The position numbers were made by a program, and so were the translations under genes. A stretch of DNA of 38,205 bases, from assembly GCA_009377735.1 (NCBI GenBank), contig WHTL01000001.1:1-38205 (forward strand), given 5' to 3'. The stretch comes from Acidimicrobiia bacterium. Lineage in GTDB: Bacteria > Actinomycetota > Acidimicrobiia > Spongiisociales > ZC4RG35. The notes under the pieces are model-generated. The model saw only the letters and a program-made list of their open reading frames with translations. It did not search any database and was not told the origin of the DNA. Shown here piece by piece: positions 2,732 through 37,912 of the stretch (its first letter is position 1; the number at the start of each line of letters is the position of its first letter).

Positions 2732-3927
2732 CTTCGGGTCGCCTCCGCCTGCTCCTGGCTGGGAATGTCGATAACGAGCCCTGATGCGGCGAGTTGCGAT
2801 GCCGCCACCTCGTCGTCGATCTCATCGGGTAGGAGGTGGACCCCGACGGGGAGGTCGTTTCCTGCGAGGTGATCGAGGGCACGCAATTGCAGGGCAAGCG
2901 ACAGGTCCATGATCTCGATGGGGTTGCCCTCGCCCGCCGTGGTGTTGGCACAGTAGCCATCGGCGACCACGAAGACCGTTGTGCCCCCGGGAGTCCGCCA
3001 AGCCCGGACATTCGGCCGGACCGTGTCTCCACCGGAGAGGGGCGGACCGATGGAGGGATCGAACTCGGGTGGGCCGGCACCACCCACCGCAATGACGGTT
3101 CCCTCACGCATCTTGGCGACGTGCTCAGCGGTGAGGGTGTGGGCGATACCGGTGGCCGTGATGACGAAGTCGGCCTGACCAATCGCGTCGGCCACGGGGG
3201 CCACTTCGAACCCGTCGTGGTGGGCGCGCAGGGCGGCAACGGGATCTATCTCGGTCACCGTGACCCGGCCCCCGAGACCACGGGCCGCTGCGGCGATTCC
3301 ACGGCCAACCTTTCCGTAACCAACCACAACCACCGACGCTCCCGACATCTGCATGTTGGTGGCGTCGAGAACAGCCATAACCACTGACTGCCCGGTGCCG
3401 TAGACGTTGTCGAAGAGCACCTTGCTGCGGGCGTCGTTGACGGCGATGCACGGCACCTCCAGCACGCCATTCTGTTCCATCACCCGAAGGGGCCGGACTC
3501 CGCTGGTGGTCTCCTCGGCGACACCTTTGAGATGCTTCAGGGCGTCGCGGCGGTCGCGGTGGAGCCGTCGCGTGATGGAGGCGCCGTCGTCGCAGAGGTA
3601 TTGATTCCCAACATCGATGAACCGGTCGCGAAGAAGATCGACCCGCACCCTGTCTGCGCCCGTCTCGGCAAATACCGCGATGCCTTCCTCGGTCAAGGCG
3701 TCCACTACCTCCGTCTTGGTGGAATGACCGGAGCCGAAAACCGACACCTCCGCTCCCAAAGATGCCACGGCCTCGGCTAGACATGCTGTCTTCGGTTCCA
3801 AGGTCAGGGCTATTCCCACCTTCGCCCCATCGAGGTTCCCTGTCTGCCTGACGGTGGCGGTGGCGGCATCCAAGGCCGGCATGAACCCGCGGGCGAAGTC
3901 GATCATCCCACGACCCTTCTCAGTCAT
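2725..3927 (-). CDS. Adenosylhomocysteinase-fold paralogue 2 (divergent; catalytic histidines replaced)
   Basis: AhcY motifs are present: DDG, AEETTSGV, NDARSKVLFDNVYGTGQS, GYGKVGRG, TEIDP. The histidine motifs read TLEPKTA (not HLExKTA), GGAGPPEFD (not GHxDxEID) and GNP (not GHP). ATG at 3927 lies inside the last codons of the upstream gene. The longer ORF to 4224 is a low-complexity extension overlapping that gene. Confidence 0.8.
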   Translation of the reverse strand: MTEKGRGMIDFARGFMPALDAATATVRQTGNLDGAKVGIALTLEPKTACLAEAVASLGAEVSVFGSGHSTKTEVVDALTEEGIAVFAETGADRVRVDLLRDRFIDVGNQYLCDDGASITRRLHRDRRDALKHLKGVAEETTSGVRPLRVMEQNGVLEVPCIAVNDARSKVLFDNVYGTGQSVVMAVLDATNMQMSGASVVVVGYGKVGRGIAAAARGLGGRVTVTEIDPVAALRAHHDGFEVAPVADAIGQADFVITATGIAHTLTAEHVAKMREGTVIAVGGAGPPEFDPSIGPPLSGGDTVRPNVRAWRTPGGTTVFVVADGYCANTTAGEGNPIEIMDLSLALQLRALDHLAGNDLPVGVHLLPDEIDDEVAASQLAASGLVIDIPSQEQAEATRSW

Positions 3928-5206: not shown

Positions 5207-5955
5207 AGACGACCAGCCTCGATGATCCGCTGTAGGAACTGCCTGGTGCGGGGGTTTGCGGGGTCGCTGAACAGTTGGGCTGGCTCGTTCTGCTCGAGGA
5301 TGCGACCATCGTGCAGGAAGCACACCCGATCGGCGACATCGCGGGCGAAGGCCATCTCGTGGGTCACGATCACCATCGTCATCCCCTTCTCCTTGAGATC
5401 GCGGATGACAGCGAGGACACCACCGATCAGCTCCGGATCGAGGGCGGCAGTCACCTCATCGAGGAGGAGGACGTCGGGATTTGTGGCCATGGCACGGACT
5501 ATGGCGACCCTTTGCTGTTGTCCACCCGAGAGCCGATCGGGATAAGACGAGGCGAATTCTCCCATCTCGAAGAGCTCGAGCAGCCGGTGGGCGTTGTCCT
5601 CGGCCGCCGCCTTGTCGACCCCGTGCACCCGGCGTGGTGCCAGAGTGATGTTGTCAAGGACCGTCATGTGGGGGAAGAGGTTGTAGGCCTGGAACACGAT
5701 CCCAATCCGCTTCCTCAGTTCGTTCTCGGTGAGGGATTCGTCGTAAAGGTCGACGCCGTCGAGGAGGATGCGGCCGCCCTCATAGTCCACAAGTCTGTTG
5801 AGACAGCGGAGCAGGGTGGACTTGCCCGAACCCGAGGCGCCGATGAGACAGACCACCTCGTGGGTGGCGACTTCGAGGTCGATCTCGTTCAGCACCATCT
5901 TGTCGCCGTAGAACTTGACGAGCCGTTCCACCTGGATCTTGGCGGGAGAATCCAT
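5203..5955 (-). CDS. Polar amino-acid ABC transporter ATP-binding protein (GlnQ/HisP type)
   Basis: Walker A GASGSGKST, signature LSGGQQQRV, Walker B LLLDE. Length of 250 aa is typical of the family. Confidence 0.9.
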   Translation of the reverse strand: MDSPAKIQVERLVKFYGDKMVLNEIDLEVATHEVVCLIGASGSGKSTLLRCLNRLVDYEGGRILLDGVDLYDESLTENELRKRIGIVFQAYNLFPHMTVLDNITLAPRRVHGVDKAAAEDNAHRLLELFEMGEFASSYPDRLSGGQQQRVAIVRAMATNPDVLLLDEVTAALDPELIGGVLAVIRDLKEKGMTMVIVTHEMAFARDVADRVCFLHDGRILEQNEPAQLFSDPANPRTRQFLQRIIEAGRL

Positions 5956-26280: not shown

Positions 26281-26357
26281 GGTGGTCAGGGGCGGAATCG
26301 AACCGCCGACCCCCGGTTTTTCAGACCGGTGCTCTAGCCAACTGAGCTACCTGACCG
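26281..26357 (-). tRNA. tRNA-Phe (GAA), CCA encoded
   Basis: Manual cloverleaf: acceptor GGTCAGG/CCTGACC, anticodon arm CCGGT-CTGAAAA-ACCGG, T arm GGCGG-TTCGATT-CCGCC, 3' ACCA. Confidence 0.9.
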
Positions 26358-26394: not shown

Positions 26395-26472
26395 GGCGGG
26401 GACGACGGGATTTGAACCCGCGACCTCCGGCTTGACAGGCCGGCGAACACTCCAGACTGTTCTACGCCCCCG
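26395..26472 (-). tRNA. tRNA-Asp (GTC), CCA encoded
   Basis: Manual cloverleaf: acceptor GGGGGCG/CGTCCCC, anticodon arm CCGGC-CTGTCAA-GCCGG, T arm GCGGG-TTCAAAT-CCCGT, 3' GCCA. Confidence 0.9.
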
Positions 26473-30737: not shown

Positions 30738-31889
30738 TCAACCATCGACGATGGCATTCCACTCCCGGATCCAAAGCTCTCGGTTCGCTGCTATTTCCTC
30801 GATCGGGATCCGGGCGGGGGAGTCGGGAACGTCGGTGAACTCCACGAATTCCTGCGGGAGCTCCACGGTTTCATTGGCGGGGAAGACGAACCAGGTGAGC
30901 GGAATTTCCTTCTGGAAGCCCGGGGAGAGCATGAAGTCGATGAGCTTACCGGCCTCGGCCTCGTGGTCGGTCCCTGCCAGGATCCCTGCGAACTCGATTT
31001 GGCGGTAGCAGCCGTTGGTGACCACGGCCGTTGGCGCCGTTTCGAGTGGTTCCTCGGCGAAGATCACCTCGGCGGGTGGGGAGGAGGCGTACGACATAAC
31101 GATGGGTCGCTCACCTCCGTAGCGGGTGAACGAGCTGTAGTAGGCGGCATCCCAGTCGGCGGCCACCTCCACCCCGTTGTCCACCAGCCCCTGCCAGTAC
31201 TCCTGCCATCCGTCCTCCCCGAACTCGGCGATGGTGGCGAGGAGGAACGCCAGCCCCGGGGAGCTGGTGGCTGCACTCTCCACGACCACCAGGTCCTGGT
31301 AGGGCTCTTGGGTGAGTTGCTCCAGATCTGTCGGCGGCTCGACTCCCGCTTCCTCAAGGGCAGCGATGTCGTAGTTGAAGCAGACATCCCCGTAGTCGAT
31401 GGGAGTGGCTCTCCTCTCCTCGTCGAGCTCGAGCTCGTCGGGTACATCGCTCAGGAGCGGCGACTCGTATGGGAGGAGTATTTCCTCGTCGAGGGCCCGT
31501 GTGAGGAAGGTGTCGTCGATCCCGAACATCACATCGGCGATGGGGTTGTCAGCAGTGAGAACTAGCTGGTTGGTGAGGGATCCGGCGTCCCCACCGGCGA
31601 GAATCTCCACCGAGATCCCGGTTTCCTCAGTGAAAGGAGCGAAGACCTCTCCGGCGGCATCGGCAAAGGAGTCGTGGGCGATCAGGGTGAGGGTTAGGTC
31701 AGACTCACCGCCCCCAGTGGTGGTGCTGGTCGCGGCCGTGGGGGATGCAGAGCCCACGGTGGTGACCGAACCTTCGGTCTCGGTAGTTGCTTGACCCGTT
31801 CCCTGATCTGCGATCGTGGTCGAGGTGGCTTCGTCGCCCGATCCGCAGCTCACGAGAATGATCACCAGGATGAGGAGGATGGTCTTCAT
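30738..31889 (-). CDS. thiB: Thiamine-binding lipoprotein of the ABC transporter (TbpA/ThiB family)
   Basis: MKTILLILVIILVSCG lipobox and a Thr/Ser-rich tether. TbpA-like blocks DSFA, ATSSPGLAFLL, SYASSP, WFVFPAN, WIREWNA. SD AGGGAG lies 6 nt before ATG 31889. Confidence 0.85.
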   Translation of the reverse strand: MKTILLILVIILVSCGSGDEATSTTIADQGTGQATTETEGSVTTVGSASPTAATSTTTGGGESDLTLTLIAHDSFADAAGEVFAPFTEETGISVEILAGGDAGSLTNQLVLTADNPIADVMFGIDDTFLTRALDEEILLPYESPLLSDVPDELELDEERRATPIDYGDVCFNYDIAALEEAGVEPPTDLEQLTQEPYQDLVVVESAATSSPGLAFLLATIAEFGEDGWQEYWQGLVDNGVEVAADWDAAYYSSFTRYGGERPIVMSYASSPPAEVIFAEEPLETAPTAVVTNGCYRQIEFAGILAGTDHEAEAGKLIDFMLSPGFQKEIPLTWFVFPANETVELPQEFVEFTDVPDSPARIPIEEIAANRELWIREWNAIVDG

Positions 31890-31913
31890 GTAATGCTCCC
31901 TGTTGTTGCGTAT

Positions 31914-32007
31914 GGGAGCCGAAGACGATCCCTGCGGCGGCATTACCCGCATCAGGTTCGAACGGTCGGAGCGTTAGCTCCCTCTCAGCCCGGTTCGTCG
32001 GGCTCCC
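31914..32007 (-). promoter_or_regulatory. TPP (THI-box) riboswitch aptamer
   Basis: Minus-strand RNA: GGGAGCCCGACGAACCGGGCUGAGAGGGAGCUAACGCUCCGACCGUUCGAACCUGAUGCGGGUAAUGCCGCCGCAGGGAUCGUCUUCGGCUCCC. It carries the conserved CUGAGA, ACCUGAU and GGUAAUGCC..GCAGGGA blocks. P1 is GGGAGCC/GGCUCCC. It lies directly upstream of thiB. Confidence 0.9.
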
Positions 32008-32075
32008 GTGTGTCATTGATCTGAAACCGATGGTACCGCTTCGCGGCGATATCGCCGATTACGCTCGCCCCAGAC

Positions 32076-33657: not shown

Positions 33658-34641
33658 CTACATCGTCGGAGCGGGGTTCCCTGCCAGGAGGGCCTGAACA
33701 TGGCTGGGCTCGGCGTTGGCTCCGGATATGACGAGGACGGTGGGTCCGGCGGAAGGGACCACGGCACCCATGAGGAGGCCGGCGACCCCGACGGCACCGG
33801 CGCCTTCGACGACGAGGCGATGGTTGTCGAAGAGAAACCACATGGCCGTCCAGATGGCGTTCTCGTCTACCAGAACGACGTCCTGGACCAGCCGGGACAC
33901 GATATCGAAGGTGTAGCGGTTGTCGAGCCCAATATCGCCCAGAAGTGAGTCGGCGAGCGTTGGCTCTTCCTCGAGATCGACGGGCTTACCCGCCTCCAGG
34001 CTGGTAGCCATCACGGCGGCGCGTTCCATGGAAACACCAATGGGCTGGGTAGCGACCGATGCCTCGTGCAGAGCAGTGGCAATACCCGCCAACAGACCCC
34101 CACCCGATAGGGGTACCAGGATGCTTGCCACCTCAGGCAGATCCTCTAGTACCTCGGCGGCAATGGTTGCCTGGCCGGCGATGACCTCAGGGTCGTCGAA
34201 CGGATGAACAAAGGCAGCACCGGTTTCTTCGGCGATCTCGTGTGCCCGTTGCAGGGCCACCGTCTGTGAGTCACCAACCACCTCTACGGTGGCACCCACC
34301 GCGTGGAGAGCGTCGAGTTTGCCATGGGGGACACCGTGGGAGACGCAGACGGTTGCTCGTATGTCGAGGGATCGAGCCACATACGACACCGCTCGACCGT
34401 GGTTACCCGTCGACGCGGTCACGACGCCAAGACTGCGTTCTTCCTCCGGAATGGACAGGATCTTCGAGGTTGCGCCCCTCACCTTGAAGGAGCCAGTGGG
34501 CTGAACAGATTCCAGCTTGAGATAGACGTCGGTCCCGACCTGATCACTCAGTTCGGGGGCAGGGACTAGTGGGGTTCGCACCACCCGCCCGTGGAGACGC
34601 TCGCGGGCAGATCTAATGTCGATCTCAGGTAACGACGACAT
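33658..34641 (-). CDS. PLP-dependent threonine/serine dehydratase-family enzyme (EutB-like)
   Basis: Motifs KLESVQPTGSFKVRGA (PLP lysine), ASTGNHG and LSGGGL. ATG 34641 overlaps the end of the upstream OCD gene. Confidence 0.8.
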   Translation of the reverse strand: MSSLPEIDIRSARERLHGRVVRTPLVPAPELSDQVGTDVYLKLESVQPTGSFKVRGATSKILSIPEEERSLGVVTASTGNHGRAVSYVARSLDIRATVCVSHGVPHGKLDALHAVGATVEVVGDSQTVALQRAHEIAEETGAAFVHPFDDPEVIAGQATIAAEVLEDLPEVASILVPLSGGGLLAGIATALHEASVATQPIGVSMERAAVMATSLEAGKPVDLEEEPTLADSLLGDIGLDNRYTFDIVSRLVQDVVLVDENAIWTAMWFLFDNHRLVVEGAGAVGVAGLLMGAVVPSAGPTVLVISGANAEPSHVQALLAGNPAPTM

Positions 34642-35614
34642 CACCCACCCCCGCCTTTGTGGCCCACTCCACCACCAACCCGGCGATGGCAGTGTCCTGG
34701 GCACCCGTTCCGGTGAGGTCGCAAACCGTCACTTGCTCAGAGCTGGTGCGACCGGGGTGCGTCCCCGATACGACCTCACCCAGCTGCACCAGGGTGGATT
34801 CGTCGAAACCCTCCGCGATGGCGGCACGGGCTTCACCCAACCGCAGACTCTGGGCGACGGAGTCGACCACCACCAGGTCGGCGGTTGCGAGAACCCCCGG
34901 GCCCAGCTCGCGCTTGTGCTCGGCGTCAGAGCCGATAGCCGTTACATGAAGACCCCGATGGAGGTGACGTTCTTCTAGGACCCCGTCAGTCGCCGGTGTG
35001 GTGGTAACCACGATGTCTGCATCGGCGAGCGTCCCTTCGACCGTCCCGAATTCGCTGGCGTCGAGATCGAGCTCGGAACTCAAGACGCCGGCAAGGTCCT
35101 CGGCCTGCTCCTGGCGTCTTGCCCACACCGAGACGGTCTCGATCTCGGACACCAGTAGCAGTGCCTCCACCTGGAGTCTCGCCTGGACACCCGCCCCCAG
35201 GACAGCCACCCGCGACGCCTCCGGATTCGCCAGATGCCGGGCGGCGACGGCACCGGCGAGTGCCGTGCGTAGATCTGTGAGGTAGCCGTTGTCGAAGAGG
35301 GCAGCCGCGGGGACACCGGTCTCGGAGTCGAGCACCATCATGAATCCACCGAGGCTGGGGAGTCCCTTCTTTGGATTGTCGAAGAACCCAGCCGACACCT
35401 TCACCGCGATACCGGGATGCCCCGGCAGATAAGCGGTCTTGATATCCACTTCGCCGTTGTGGTCCTCCACATCCAACCGCATGATGGGTGGCATCACCGC
35501 CGAACCGTCGGCGATCAGCGGATATACCGACTCGATCGTCGTCAGCTCCTCTTCACCGAACCCGACGAGACCCCGGATCTGGGTCTCGGTGAGGACCGAC
35601 AGCTCGGTGGGCAC
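34625..35614 (-). CDS. Ornithine cyclodeaminase / mu-crystallin family NAD-dependent enzyme (EutC-like)
   Basis: OCD_Mu_crystall-like sequence with the Rossmann motif VLGAGVQA. GTG start. Confidence 0.8.
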   Translation of the reverse strand: MPTELSVLTETQIRGLVGFGEEELTTIESVYPLIADGSAVMPPIMRLDVEDHNGEVDIKTAYLPGHPGIAVKVSAGFFDNPKKGLPSLGGFMMVLDSETGVPAAALFDNGYLTDLRTALAGAVAARHLANPEASRVAVLGAGVQARLQVEALLLVSEIETVSVWARRQEQAEDLAGVLSSELDLDASEFGTVEGTLADADIVVTTTPATDGVLEERHLHRGLHVTAIGSDAEHKRELGPGVLATADLVVVDSVAQSLRLGEARAAIAEGFDESTLVQLGEVVSGTHPGRTSSEQVTVCDLTGTGAQDTAIAGLVVEWATKAGVGDVVVT

Positions 35615-35641
35615 TTAGTGCCCCCCACCGGAAATGCGCTG

Positions 35642-35751
35642 GTATTTCAACGGACAGCGACGCCGCTTGCTGCGTCCTCGCCCTCGACGCACCGCATCGG
35701 GTGCGCCTTCGTGCTGCGTCCTTGCCATCAACGCCGCTGCCTCGCCGAAAT
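35642..35751 (-). ncRNA. Candidate structured 3'-UTR RNA element, copy R1 (about 27 nt downstream of the Cys/Met-PLP gene stop)
   Basis: It shares ordered identical blocks with the copy at 37108-37214. Read on the minus strand, closing helix AUUUCGGCG/CGUUGAAAU and second helix GCAGCGGCG/CGUCGCUGU form with G-U pairs. Those pairs would be C-A mismatches on the plus strand. Confidence 0.55.
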
Positions 35752-35778
35752 GCGCGACCGCACTTCCGTTGGAGAGCA

Positions 35779-36960
35779 CTAGACGGCTTTGAGCGCCTGG
35801 TCGAGATCGGCGATTAGATCCTCGATGTCCTCGATACCGGCCGAATAGCGGATGAGGCCCTCGGGGATACCCAGGGCGGCTCGCTCCTCCTCGGTGCACT
35901 CGACGTGGCTGCTGGTTGCCGGTGCCGCCACGATGGTTTCCACGGCTCCGAGGTTGGCGGCGGCGTGGGCATGCCGCATTGCGGGAATGAACTTGCGAAC
36001 GGCATCGAGGTCACCCTCGAGCCCAAAGCTGAGCATGCCACCGAATCCGGTCATCTGTTTGGCAGCCACCTCGTGACCAGCGTGACCCGACAGGCCCGGA
36101 TAGTTCACCGATGTTACCCGTGGCTGGTTGAGGAGGTGCTCGGCGACGGCCTGGGCATTCTGGTTCTGACGCTCGATCCGGAGATGGAGGGTCTTCGTGC
36201 CCCGTAGGAGGAGGTAGGCCGCCATCGGATGGAGCGTGGCACCGTTGATCTCCCGGTAGGCGTAGACCTTCTCCACCAACTCTTCGCTACCCACAACTAC
36301 ACCACCGAGCGCATCGGCATGGCCACCGAGGAACTTGGTAGCGGAGTGGATCACAAGATCGGCCCCGAGTTCCAGCGGCTTCTGGTTGATGGGGGTGGCC
36401 ACCGTGTTATCGACGATCACCACGGCACCGGCGTCATGACCGGCCTTGGCGAGACGGGCCAAGTCGAGGACCTTCAGCGTTGGGTTGGTTGGTGTCTCCA
36501 GATATAGGACATCGCAGCCTTTGGCCAGTTCGGCTTCGATCTGCTCGTGGTCGTCGGTCTCACAGAGCTCGATGTCCACCCCGTACTGGGGGAGGTAATC
36601 GGCGAAGACGCGGTTGGTGCCCCCATAGGTGTCCTTGATCGAAACGACCCTTTTCCCGGGAGCGAGGAGGGCGAAGAGAGAGTTGGAGATGGCGGCCATT
36701 CCAGTGGAGGCCGAAGTGGCGGCCTTCCCACCCTCGAGGACCCGCACCTTCTCCTCGAATACTGCGACGGTGGGGTTGGAGTTACGACCGTAGATGTGGC
36801 CAGCCTCCTCCCCAACGGCGACCGACTTCCACTGCTCCACCTCACCGTATCCATAGGAGACGCTGTGAATCACGGGGACCTGGGTGGCGTCGCCGCCAAG
36901 GGCGCGGTGCTCGCCCGCCCACACTGCCTGCGTTCCTGGCGTTGGTACCTTTTCGCTCAT
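35779..36960 (-). CDS. Cys/Met-metabolism PLP-dependent enzyme (cystathionine gamma-synthase / gamma-lyase / methionine gamma-lyase family)
   Basis: Motifs [15 protein letters not shown] and SATKFLGGH (PLP lysine). I prefer ATG 36960, which lies 9 nt after GGAGG. The track start GTG 36966 is too close to the SD. Confidence 0.85.
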
Positions 36961-37107
36961 GATCACTTACCTCCTCTGGTGCGGATAGATGTCGTGGCAC
37001 TTAGATGGCCGCGACTGTAGTGACTTGTTTGGAGTGGGATCGCGGCACTATCGATTGCCGCGAATATTGGTGTCACCACCTAGTGTCCTGGCCGGCTGAT
37101 CATGCAT

Positions 37108-37214
37108 GTATTTCAACGGCCCTTTTCACCCCTGGCTGCGTCCTCCGCCTCGACGAACCGCCAGTGCGTCTTCGTTGTGCGTCCTTGCCAGGAGCGAAAA
37201 TTGCTCGCCGAAAT
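37108..37214 (-). ncRNA. Candidate structured 3'-UTR RNA element, copy R2 (about 26 nt downstream of the GntR gene stop)
   Basis: It has the same conserved blocks as R1: gtatttcaacgg, ctgcgtcctc, tgcgtccttgcca, ctcgccgaaat. The closing helix is GUAUUUCGGCG/CGUUGAAAUAC. The second helix is replaced by the covarying pair UUUUCGCUCC/GGGGUGAAAA. Confidence 0.55.
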
Positions 37215-37240
37215 ACCAAGCGAACCAACCGGACAGGACA

Positions 37241-37912
37241 CTAGATCAGCGATCTGGTCAGGTACTGGTTGTAACGGTTGAGCAAGGTGGTTAAATGGTC
37301 GGATCGAAACTTGGCCATCAGGTCTGCCGAACCCGTCTCGAGTGCGTCGAGGCAATCGTCGATCTCGGCGACCATGATCCGCACCTCCTCATCCCAATCC
37401 ATGTCGGGTAGCACCTGGATCCAGACCCGTGCGGTGCGACGGAACAGACGATCGGCGATTTCCCTGAGCGGTTCATTTCCGATCGTGCTCAGGAGGGTTT
37501 CGTGGAACTGGTTGTAGTGGTGGCCGAGTAGTCGGGCATCGCGTTTGGAGGAGTCGGTTAGGGTCGCCGCCCTTATTTCGTGCAATCTCTCGATGGTTCC
37601 CACCGGCACTGGAACAATCATGAAGTCGGCGAATAGCTCTGTGAGCTTGAGCCGAAGCGAGTAGACGTCCCGCATCGATTTGAGGTCAACCCCCGATACC
37701 GAGGTGCCACCGCCCGGTTGGCGGGTAACCAAACCATCGATGCGCAGCTTGGTGAGTGCCTCTCGCACGGGAGTGCGGCTCACCCCAAACTCCTCGGCAA
37801 TTGCCTGCTCACGAAGGGGTGTGCCAGGGGGCAACTCGAGAATGCAGATCCGGTCCCTCAGCTGCTCATAGATTCGGTCGGCGGTGAACCGCTTCTCGGC
37901 TTCCTTGCTCAT
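37241..37912 (-). CDS. GntR-family transcriptional regulator (FadR/FCD subfamily)
   Basis: The wHTH segment reads AIAEEFGVSRTPVREALTKLRIDGLV, followed by a helical C-domain. Confidence 0.85.
   Translation of the reverse strand: MSKEAEKRFTADRIYEQLRDRICILELPPGTPLREQAIAEEFGVSRTPVREALTKLRIDGLVTRQPGGGTSVSGVDLKSMRDVYSLRLKLTELFADFMIVPVPVGTIERLHEIRAATLTDSSKRDARLLGHHYNQFHETLLSTIGNEPLREIADRLFRRTARVWIQVLPDMDWDEEVRIMVAEIDDCLDALETGSADLMAKFRSDHLTTLLNRYNQYLTRSLI

Follow-up and report, generated by a model that had tools for sequence, protein, structure and literature searches.

In this study, we analysed a stretch of 38,205 nucleotides from an Acidimicrobiia bacterium (contig WHTL01000001.1, positions 1 to 38,205; hereafter the window), in which two related structured repeats, R1 and R2, stand on either side of a gene for a Cys/Met-metabolism pyridoxal phosphate (PLP) enzyme. 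We believe that each copy is a non-autonomous mobile DNA element of approximately 160 bp, namely a MITE (miniature inverted-repeat transposable element) of the ERIC/Correia/RUP type, and we put the probability of this reading at roughly 0.8. The repeats form a new MITE/ERIC-like family in Thermoleophilia and Acidimicrobiia and are not a gene-specific regulatory RNA or riboswitch. Like MITEs, they are small and non-coding, carry inverted repeats, have TA on both sides and are present or absent at orthologous sites. The initial annotation of the window had described two copies in the same orientation, and both were found where it had placed them. However, its extent of about 110 nt was too narrow, the helix running about 27 nt further on each side; the 110-nt piece does lie about 27 nt past a stop codon, as was said, but the real element begins at the stop itself (cTAG...).

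On the minus strand, the order is GntR/FCD regulator, R2, Cys/Met PLP enzyme, R1, ornithine cyclodeaminase (OCD)-like enzyme and PALP enzyme. The elements and the genes that they touch are as follows:

35618..35779, minus strand: R1 element proper, 162 nt, a rod-like hairpin with the ends 5'-GTGCTCTCC...GGGGGGCAC-3', between the PLP and OCD genes
35780..35781, minus strand: 5' TA flank of R1; TA and the first G of the element (35779) form the TAG stop of the PLP gene (35781..35779)
35616..35617, minus strand: 3' TA flank of R1; the next base is A (TAA), after which the OCD gene begins directly with GTG at 35614
35669..35726, minus strand: conserved core of R1, GGCAAGGACGCA, a variable hairpin and GAGGACGCAGC, with two AGGACGCAG boxes opposed across an internal loop
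37083..37241, minus strand: R2 element proper, 159 nt, with the ends 5'-GTGTCCTG...CAGGACAC-3', between the GntR/FCD and PLP genes
37242..37243, minus strand: 5' TA flank of R2; TA and G (37241) form the TAG stop of the GntR gene, in the context CTAG
37081..37082, minus strand: 3' TA flank of R2, in the context ...CAGGACAC-TA-GGTGG
37135..37189, minus strand: conserved core of R2, with two AGGACGCA boxes
37241..37912, minus strand: gene for a GntR/FCD-family regulator (Pfam GntR 1e-21, FCD 2.7e-7), its stop codon rebuilt by R2
35779..36966, minus strand: gene for the Cys/Met-metabolism PLP enzyme (Pfam PF01053 1e-128; deposited protein 393 aa, ATG at 36960), with R1 and R2 on either side
34625..35614, minus strand: gene of the ornithine cyclodeaminase/mu-crystallin family (Pfam PF02423 5e-57), its GTG start directly after R1

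Seven orthologous GntR-PLP-OCD-PALP operons were found in related Acidimicrobiia (PLP enzymes 76-81% identical), and the element was at neither site in any of them. The GntR-PLP gap was 8-31 nt in all seven, the PLP-OCD junction was either a TGATG stop/start overlap or 21 nt, and a profile search of four of the seven (L199-L202) gave no match. Because the orthologous operons are compact and without copies, R1 and R2 are insertions. The R2 junction reads CTG ATC-TA-[GTGTCCTG...CAGGACAC]-TA-GGTGG, and the R1 junction reads GCC GTC-TA-[GTGCTCTCC...GGGGGGCAC]-TA-A GTG, with the ends GTGCTC...GGGCAC. The relatives have the same last sense codons (ATC; GTC or GTT) with the stop immediately after, so one TA at each site must be original and the other new. 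In the closest relative, L199, CTAG stands at both sites. At the 3' end of R1, the sequence ...CACTA-A-GTG places the end of the rod directly before the start of the OCD gene.

Further copies were collected with the exact pattern GCAAGGACGCA-N20-50-GAGGACGCAG, a 21-base core in two boxes, in one genome per species of GTDB, and at least 118 loci carried it. Among the matches listed, nearly all were metagenome-assembled genomes (MAGs) of Gaiellaceae, Solirubrobacterales, other Thermoleophilia or Acidimicrobiia, and long complementary arms surrounded the core in all but one or two. Chromosomes of Solirubrobacterales and Actinomycetes (OY969xxx and OY970xxx) were also among the matches. Two size classes, near 98 bp and near 162 bp and each flanked by TA, were seen among the 110 copies that were compared. 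In 48 of these 110, TA lay 54-56 nt 5' of the core, and in 52 it lay 54-58 nt 3' of the core, with a background of about 2 per offset on either side. Where TA was present on both sides, the inferred target was mostly C-TA-G or C-TA-A. The element as a whole is an inverted repeat, self-complementary over almost all of its length, and in almost every copy 8-10 of the 10 terminal nt were paired. With a G at its start and a C at its end beside TA, the element restores a TAG stop on either strand. The arms vary freely, so no conserved open reading frame (ORF) is possible. The blocks common to R1 and R2 (gtatttcaacgg, ctgcgtcctc, tgcgtccttgcca and ctcgccgaaat) were confirmed as first described; since the two copies have nothing but the conserved blocks in common, they are members of two family lineages that inserted independently.

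A profile search gave 127 copies in 1.37 Mb of collected loci, with more than one copy in 7 loci. The window holds two copies in its 38 kb, and a third was found there by neither pattern nor profile search; three MAGs occurred twice among the matches listed, and approximately 0.9 Mb of flanks contained 9 extra copies. As a rough guess, a genome may carry tens of copies. A copy at a contig end in another Acidimicrobiia MAG (L047, JBOGEU010000004.1) is 91% identical to R2, arms included, and follows an unrelated gene. Because so similar a copy stands at an unrelated locus, the R2 variant has moved or spread recently. Two copies in different Gaiellaceae MAGs (L004, approximately 3739-3854, and L118, approximately 5673-5787, both on the minus strand) carry an additional branch (...CCGACGAGCGAAGCGAGGAGTCGCG...) about 45-60 nt in length. 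Its position, immediately 3' of the second box, is identical in both, and it represents either an optional added domain or another small insert. Bona fide Acidimicrobiia-type copies were also seen in MAGs labelled Burkholderiales (L053, CAZTOV010000050.1) and Gammaproteobacteria (L074, CAXMOO010000078.1), which suggests mis-binning or, less likely, cross-phylum transfer.

The family was not met in other collections. Rfam 15 gave no match at gathering thresholds, nor at E<=10 with permissive filters, in keeping with the initial annotation, in which the element could be matched to no familiar riboswitch or sRNA family. No blastn match (word size 11) was obtained in E. coli (5,426 genomes, 20,395 records carrying ERIC copies). 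Three matches in viral contigs were all due to chance and without the rod, and one match in PLSDB plasmids, within hypF, was also due to chance. In the literature, no such repeat or RNA motif was found described for these lineages; a review of prokaryotic MITEs covers neither Thermoleophilia nor Acidimicrobiia (PMC10969869).

The gene context was examined with flanking genes taken from a home-made call based on GC content at third codon positions, by which 42 of 119 contexts stayed unresolved. The ends of the rod coincided with stop codons of flanking genes, whichever side the gene lay on and whichever way it ran. A same-strand gene stopped 51-53 nt before the core in 36 loci, an opposite-strand gene stopped 53-55 nt after the core (21-24 nt in short forms) in 55 loci, and sense and antisense stops were both present in 14 loci. 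Convergent contexts were the commonest, tandem contexts were about equal in both orientations, and divergent contexts were rare. The 125 flanking ORFs belonged to 176 Pfam families, none with more than 4 members, including DnaK, FtsZ, triosephosphate isomerase and tRNA synthetases. The element was absent from all 80 metagenome loci with PLP homologues (39-69% identical). Because there is no tie to a gene or an orientation, we consider the family a DNA-level repeat. The initial annotation, which had preferred a transcribed, folded RNA to a plain DNA repeat, named mixed orientation relative to genes as the finding that would speak for DNA, and 36 sense against 55 antisense copies is such a mixture. 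It was right about a folded, covarying single strand but not about a gene-associated RNA, in view of both orientations, the unrelated neighbours, the TA flanks and the insertion polymorphism.

The folding itself was well borne out. As minus-strand RNA, the 110-nt pieces of R1 and R2 folded at -56.3 and -53.2 kcal/mol (z -4.7 and -7.7), respectively; none of 200 shuffles matched these energies, and the plus strand was much worse. The full rods gave -95.0 kcal/mol for R1 (35616-35781; z -7.4; plus strand -63.3) and -89.0 kcal/mol for R2 (37081-37243; z -8.8; plus strand -65.8). The three helices named at the outset were present in the minimum-free-energy folds. For covariation, 16 full-length Acidimicrobiia-type copies were aligned, with the structure taken from individual folds. 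Both sides had changed in 47 of 65 pairs, as the claim of covarying helices had implied, and although a structure derived from the same sequences favours itself, these double changes are numerous nonetheless. Paired cells amounted to 88.5%, compared with 68.9% in shuffles (0 of 500 reached the observed value) and 33-44% with partners slid, and two isolated pairs within the core also covaried. When 104 copies were aligned with MAFFT and passed to RNAalifold, hardly any structure came out, since their variable helices did not stay in register; the subfamily alignment with the structure from individual folds took its place. The apical core is invariant across two actinobacterial classes, while the arms vary freely yet stay complementary. 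Read 5'->3', the two AGGACGCAG boxes are the same on either side of the internal loop, which gives a pseudo-two-fold site.

The strand that folds was determined with a strand-neutral mismatch count, in which each 5' arm was aligned to the reverse complement of its 3' arm. The ratios of G-T-type to A-C-type mismatches were 104:17 for copies of the Acidimicrobiia type and 278:55 for those of the Thermoleophilia type, and the ratio of G-U-type to A-C-type on the Acidimicrobiia alignment itself was 113:15. An excess of approximately 6:1 agrees with the minus strand of the window being the folded one, as first proposed. The bias was 108:26 in sense copies and 138:55 in copies whose only abutting gene is antisense. 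The box-bearing strand was the more stable in 91 of 95 rods, with means of -97.0 and -77.5 kcal/mol for this strand and its complement, respectively. From these sequence data, one strand appears to be selected to fold, largely independently of host transcription, and both RNA and single-stranded DNA would fit.

Several points weigh against the MITE. TA is palindromic, so that a duplication and a terminal TA look the same in sequence. The empty sites come from relatives, and none is an exact one from the same species. Some short-form copies (about 100 bp) end in TGA...TCA or ATGAG...CTCAT without flanking TA. The termini vary widely from copy to copy, R1 and R2 included, with TA-G(TG) as their sole common part. 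In classical MITEs, the ends are conserved transposase-binding sites, whereas here the centre is conserved and the ends are not. In addition, a partner search with terminal-repeat words and with TA-flanked inverted repeats 600-2500 bp apart found no transposase or autonomous partner with matching ends in 1.4 Mb of loci, which is a weak negative. Apart from this weighing, short forms with TGA...TCA or ATGAG...CTCAT ends were seen at L033, L038, L076, L097, L005, L014, L029 and L087, where TCA is the TGA stop of the antisense gene.

Could the selected form be RNA? The element might be a mobile RNA module, exploited on co-transcription by the host or by the element, that serves as a processing or stability determinant, binds a dimeric protein (RNase III, for example) or holds stop and start codons next to each other for translational coupling. 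We regard this as possible, although the odds seem to us to be against it; it is compatible with mobility and competes with the MITE only over the purpose of the conserved core. The excess of G-U over A-C is large and slightly stronger in sense than in antisense copies, both copies of the window are sense and lie inside an operon exactly between a stop and the next gene, and RNase E and RNase III cleave the RNAs of ERIC and Correia (PMC10969869, PMC3184786). However, antisense abutting genes are at least as frequent as sense ones, the wobble bias persists in antisense copies, and no terminator-like U-tract is present. In 35500-37350 we found no terminator-like site, no U-tract and no promoter signal at the element.

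We also speculated that the unit of selection may be the folded single strand, whose invariant core would be recognised by its structure, by a dimeric enzyme or an RNA-binding protein, while the arms drift as long as they stay paired. This idea is tentative, and we would sooner doubt it than rely on it. If it is true, it would mean a new hairpin-directed, TA-specific transposition, or a mobile functional RNA module across two actinobacterial classes.

Another explanation, which we think unlikely, is a mobile, structure-specific single-stranded DNA element akin to REPIN/RAYT or to palindromes derived from IS200/IS605, in which an HUH/Y1 enzyme would cut the folded top strand at TA, and the two TAs would be a target site and a cleavage site instead of a duplication. 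It would account for the strand-specific wobble tolerance independent of host gene orientation, for arms conserved in structure and not in sequence, for the pseudo-symmetric conserved core, and for the preference for gene 3' ends and convergent spaces, which resembles REP/REPIN. On the other hand, the ends of IS200/IS605 are two separate subterminal hairpins and not one rod joining left and right, REPs are 20-40 nt long and sequence-conserved within a genome, and no Y1/RAYT gene turned up, though none was sought systematically. The classical signature of IS630/Tc1-mariner, by contrast, is TA on both flanks.

A cis-regulatory RNA of the Cys/Met-PLP operon (riboswitch, leader or attenuator), in tandem before two genes, has in its favour a highly structured, covarying fold with conserved internal loops and the sense orientation within an amino-acid-metabolism operon. 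We consider it highly improbable. The element was found in 0 of 7 orthologous operons and 0 of 80 further loci with PLP homologues, 176 Pfam families stand alongside it in both orientations, it touches gene 3' ends and not 5' leaders, and Rfam gave no match. An integron attC site or other cassette site, with the PLP gene as the cassette, is hardly credible either. The remark on recombination or cassette behaviour in the initial annotation rightly pointed to the DNA level, but not to attC. Imperfect palindromes, conserved structure, strand asymmetry and a position right behind stop codons do recall attC, as do two co-oriented copies that flank a single gene. However, the PLP gene holds the same operon position in relatives without the repeats and is therefore not a cassette, the ends are TA-G...C-TA and not RYYYAAC...GTTRRRY, and attC sites keep their terminal boxes and vary in the centre, the reverse of what was seen. 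Copies elsewhere are solitary and in both orientations, and no integrase was found among the neighbouring genes. Of the remaining candidates, an intrinsic terminator was rejected for want of a U-tract and because R1 is followed directly by a start codon, a SECIS/PYLIS-like recoding hairpin because in-frame read-through of R1 meets TGA after 16 codons, a K-turn because the loop geometry is unfit, a hammerhead or other known ribozyme because Rfam gave no match, and a long form nested from the short form because there is no internal TA at the short-form boundary.

Studies have shown that MITEs of the ERIC type carry terminal inverted repeats, with TA at either end, and that they stand at the 3' ends of genes and undergo co-transcription (PMC3184786; PMC10969869). 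ERIC, also called IRU, is a MITE of about 127 bp in Enterobacteriaceae and Vibrionaceae with tens to hundreds of copies per genome (PMC3184786, PMC10969869). The present family is like it in being an imperfect palindrome of 100-170 bp that forms a long hairpin with TA at both termini, in lying in transcribed intergenic regions at gene 3' ends in both orientations, and in keeping its consensus across distant hosts (PMC3184786, PMC10969869). In contrast to ERIC, which it does not resemble in sequence, the family lives in Acidimicrobiia and Thermoleophilia, has an asymmetric, invariant apical core with two direct AGGACGCAG boxes but variable terminal repeats, and has ends built to regenerate a TAG stop.

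The Correia elements (CREE/NEMIS) of Neisseria and RUP of Streptococcus pneumoniae are similarly small and non-autonomous, with inverted ends and TA duplication, and are often co-transcribed with the genes beside them. RUP is presumably mobilised by an IS630-family transposase. Unlike the present family, whose termini are its least conserved part, both have their own conserved terminal repeats of about 26 bp, and Correia carries promoter and IHF sites. The Correia hairpin RNA undergoes RNase III processing (PMC10969869). In the Bacillus cereus group, the dispersed repeat bcr1 (about 155 bp) is transcribed and flanked by direct repeats, and compensatory base changes keep its structure (PMC3184786); it differs by 5-bp flanking repeats that are not TA, by its phylum and by having no sequence in common. 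REP/REPIN-RAYT elements are also strand-specific, non-autonomous extragenic hairpins past gene 3' ends and between convergent genes, but REPs measure 20-40 nt and REPINs about 70-110 nt, are sequence-conserved within a genome, have a GTAG-type start and lack TA flanks. Integron attC sites share the conservation of structure over sequence, the action of one folded strand and the place right after the cassette stop, whereas the conserved and variable parts are swapped here, there are no R/L boxes, arrays or integrase, and the flanked gene is immobile.

For the mobile DNA element, the course of insertion is as follows. The element integrates at TA, preferably in C-TA-G or C-TA-A, and leaves TA on both sides. 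Because the genomes are G+C-rich, such a target is mostly a stop codon. The split stop is rebuilt as TAG for a gene on either strand, and the protein stays unchanged. As comparison with the relatives shows, two family lineages landed separately on the GntR and PLP stops of a once compact operon. Since the wobble bias is on the box-bearing strand whatever the orientation of the host gene, this strand probably must fold for propagation. The symmetric core may be the docking site of a dimeric protein, for which two boxes reading the same 5'->3' across the loop, in pseudo-two-fold arrangement, would be suited. TA on both sides is a hallmark of IS630/Tc1-mariner transposition, and a transposase of this type, supplied in trans, would be the probable enzyme judging by the TA flanks and established knowledge of that group. 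The variable termini and the strand asymmetry fit it poorly and leave room for a structure-specific single-strand mechanism. More speculatively, the co-transcribed rod might bring the upstream stop beside the downstream start and could keep translational coupling, or it might act as an RNase target or a stabiliser, by analogy to ERIC and Correia.

The result removes a tempting false lead: without it, this covarying, RNA-like motif would be entered among candidate riboswitches. Comparative RNA-motif pipelines run on MAGs of Actinomycetota will meet the family repeatedly. A widespread MITE-like family is thereby documented for Thermoleophilia and Acidimicrobiia. Its G...C ends and its TA target let the element occupy tight, even translationally coupled operons with no protein changed. 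The unusual feature is the inverted conservation, with an invariant centre and free ends. With its invariant centre, its free but paired arms and its strand-specific wobble, the family is well suited to studying what selection acts on in palindromic repeats.

Some observations concern the operon and the rest of the window. Between R2 and the PLP start codon lies a unique spacer of about 120 nt (36961-37080, minus strand), where the orthologous operons have 8-31 nt. It contains a hairpin (TCGCGGCA...TGCCGCGA) as well as a single weak match resembling a promoter (37076-37047), and no second copy of it was found in approximately 1.4 Mb of collected loci. It could be a lineage-specific promoter/operator or the leftover of another insertion. 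In L199-L202, the GntR-PLP-OCD-PALP operon divergently adjoins an amino-acid ABC (ATP-binding cassette) transporter (SBP_bac_3, two permeases and an ATPase), which suggests an amino-acid catabolic or salvage unit; the window stops short of the matching region. Elsewhere in the window, two adjacent tRNA genes were detected at 26283-26356 and 26397-26471, both on the minus strand (74.4 and 62.9 bits, respectively). A thiamine pyrophosphate (TPP) riboswitch (Rfam RF00059, 73.4 bits) lies at 31912-32019 on the minus strand, directly upstream of a solute-binding-protein ORF at 30738-31952 (Pfam SBP_bac_6/8), which presumably belongs to an uptake system for thiamine or a precursor.

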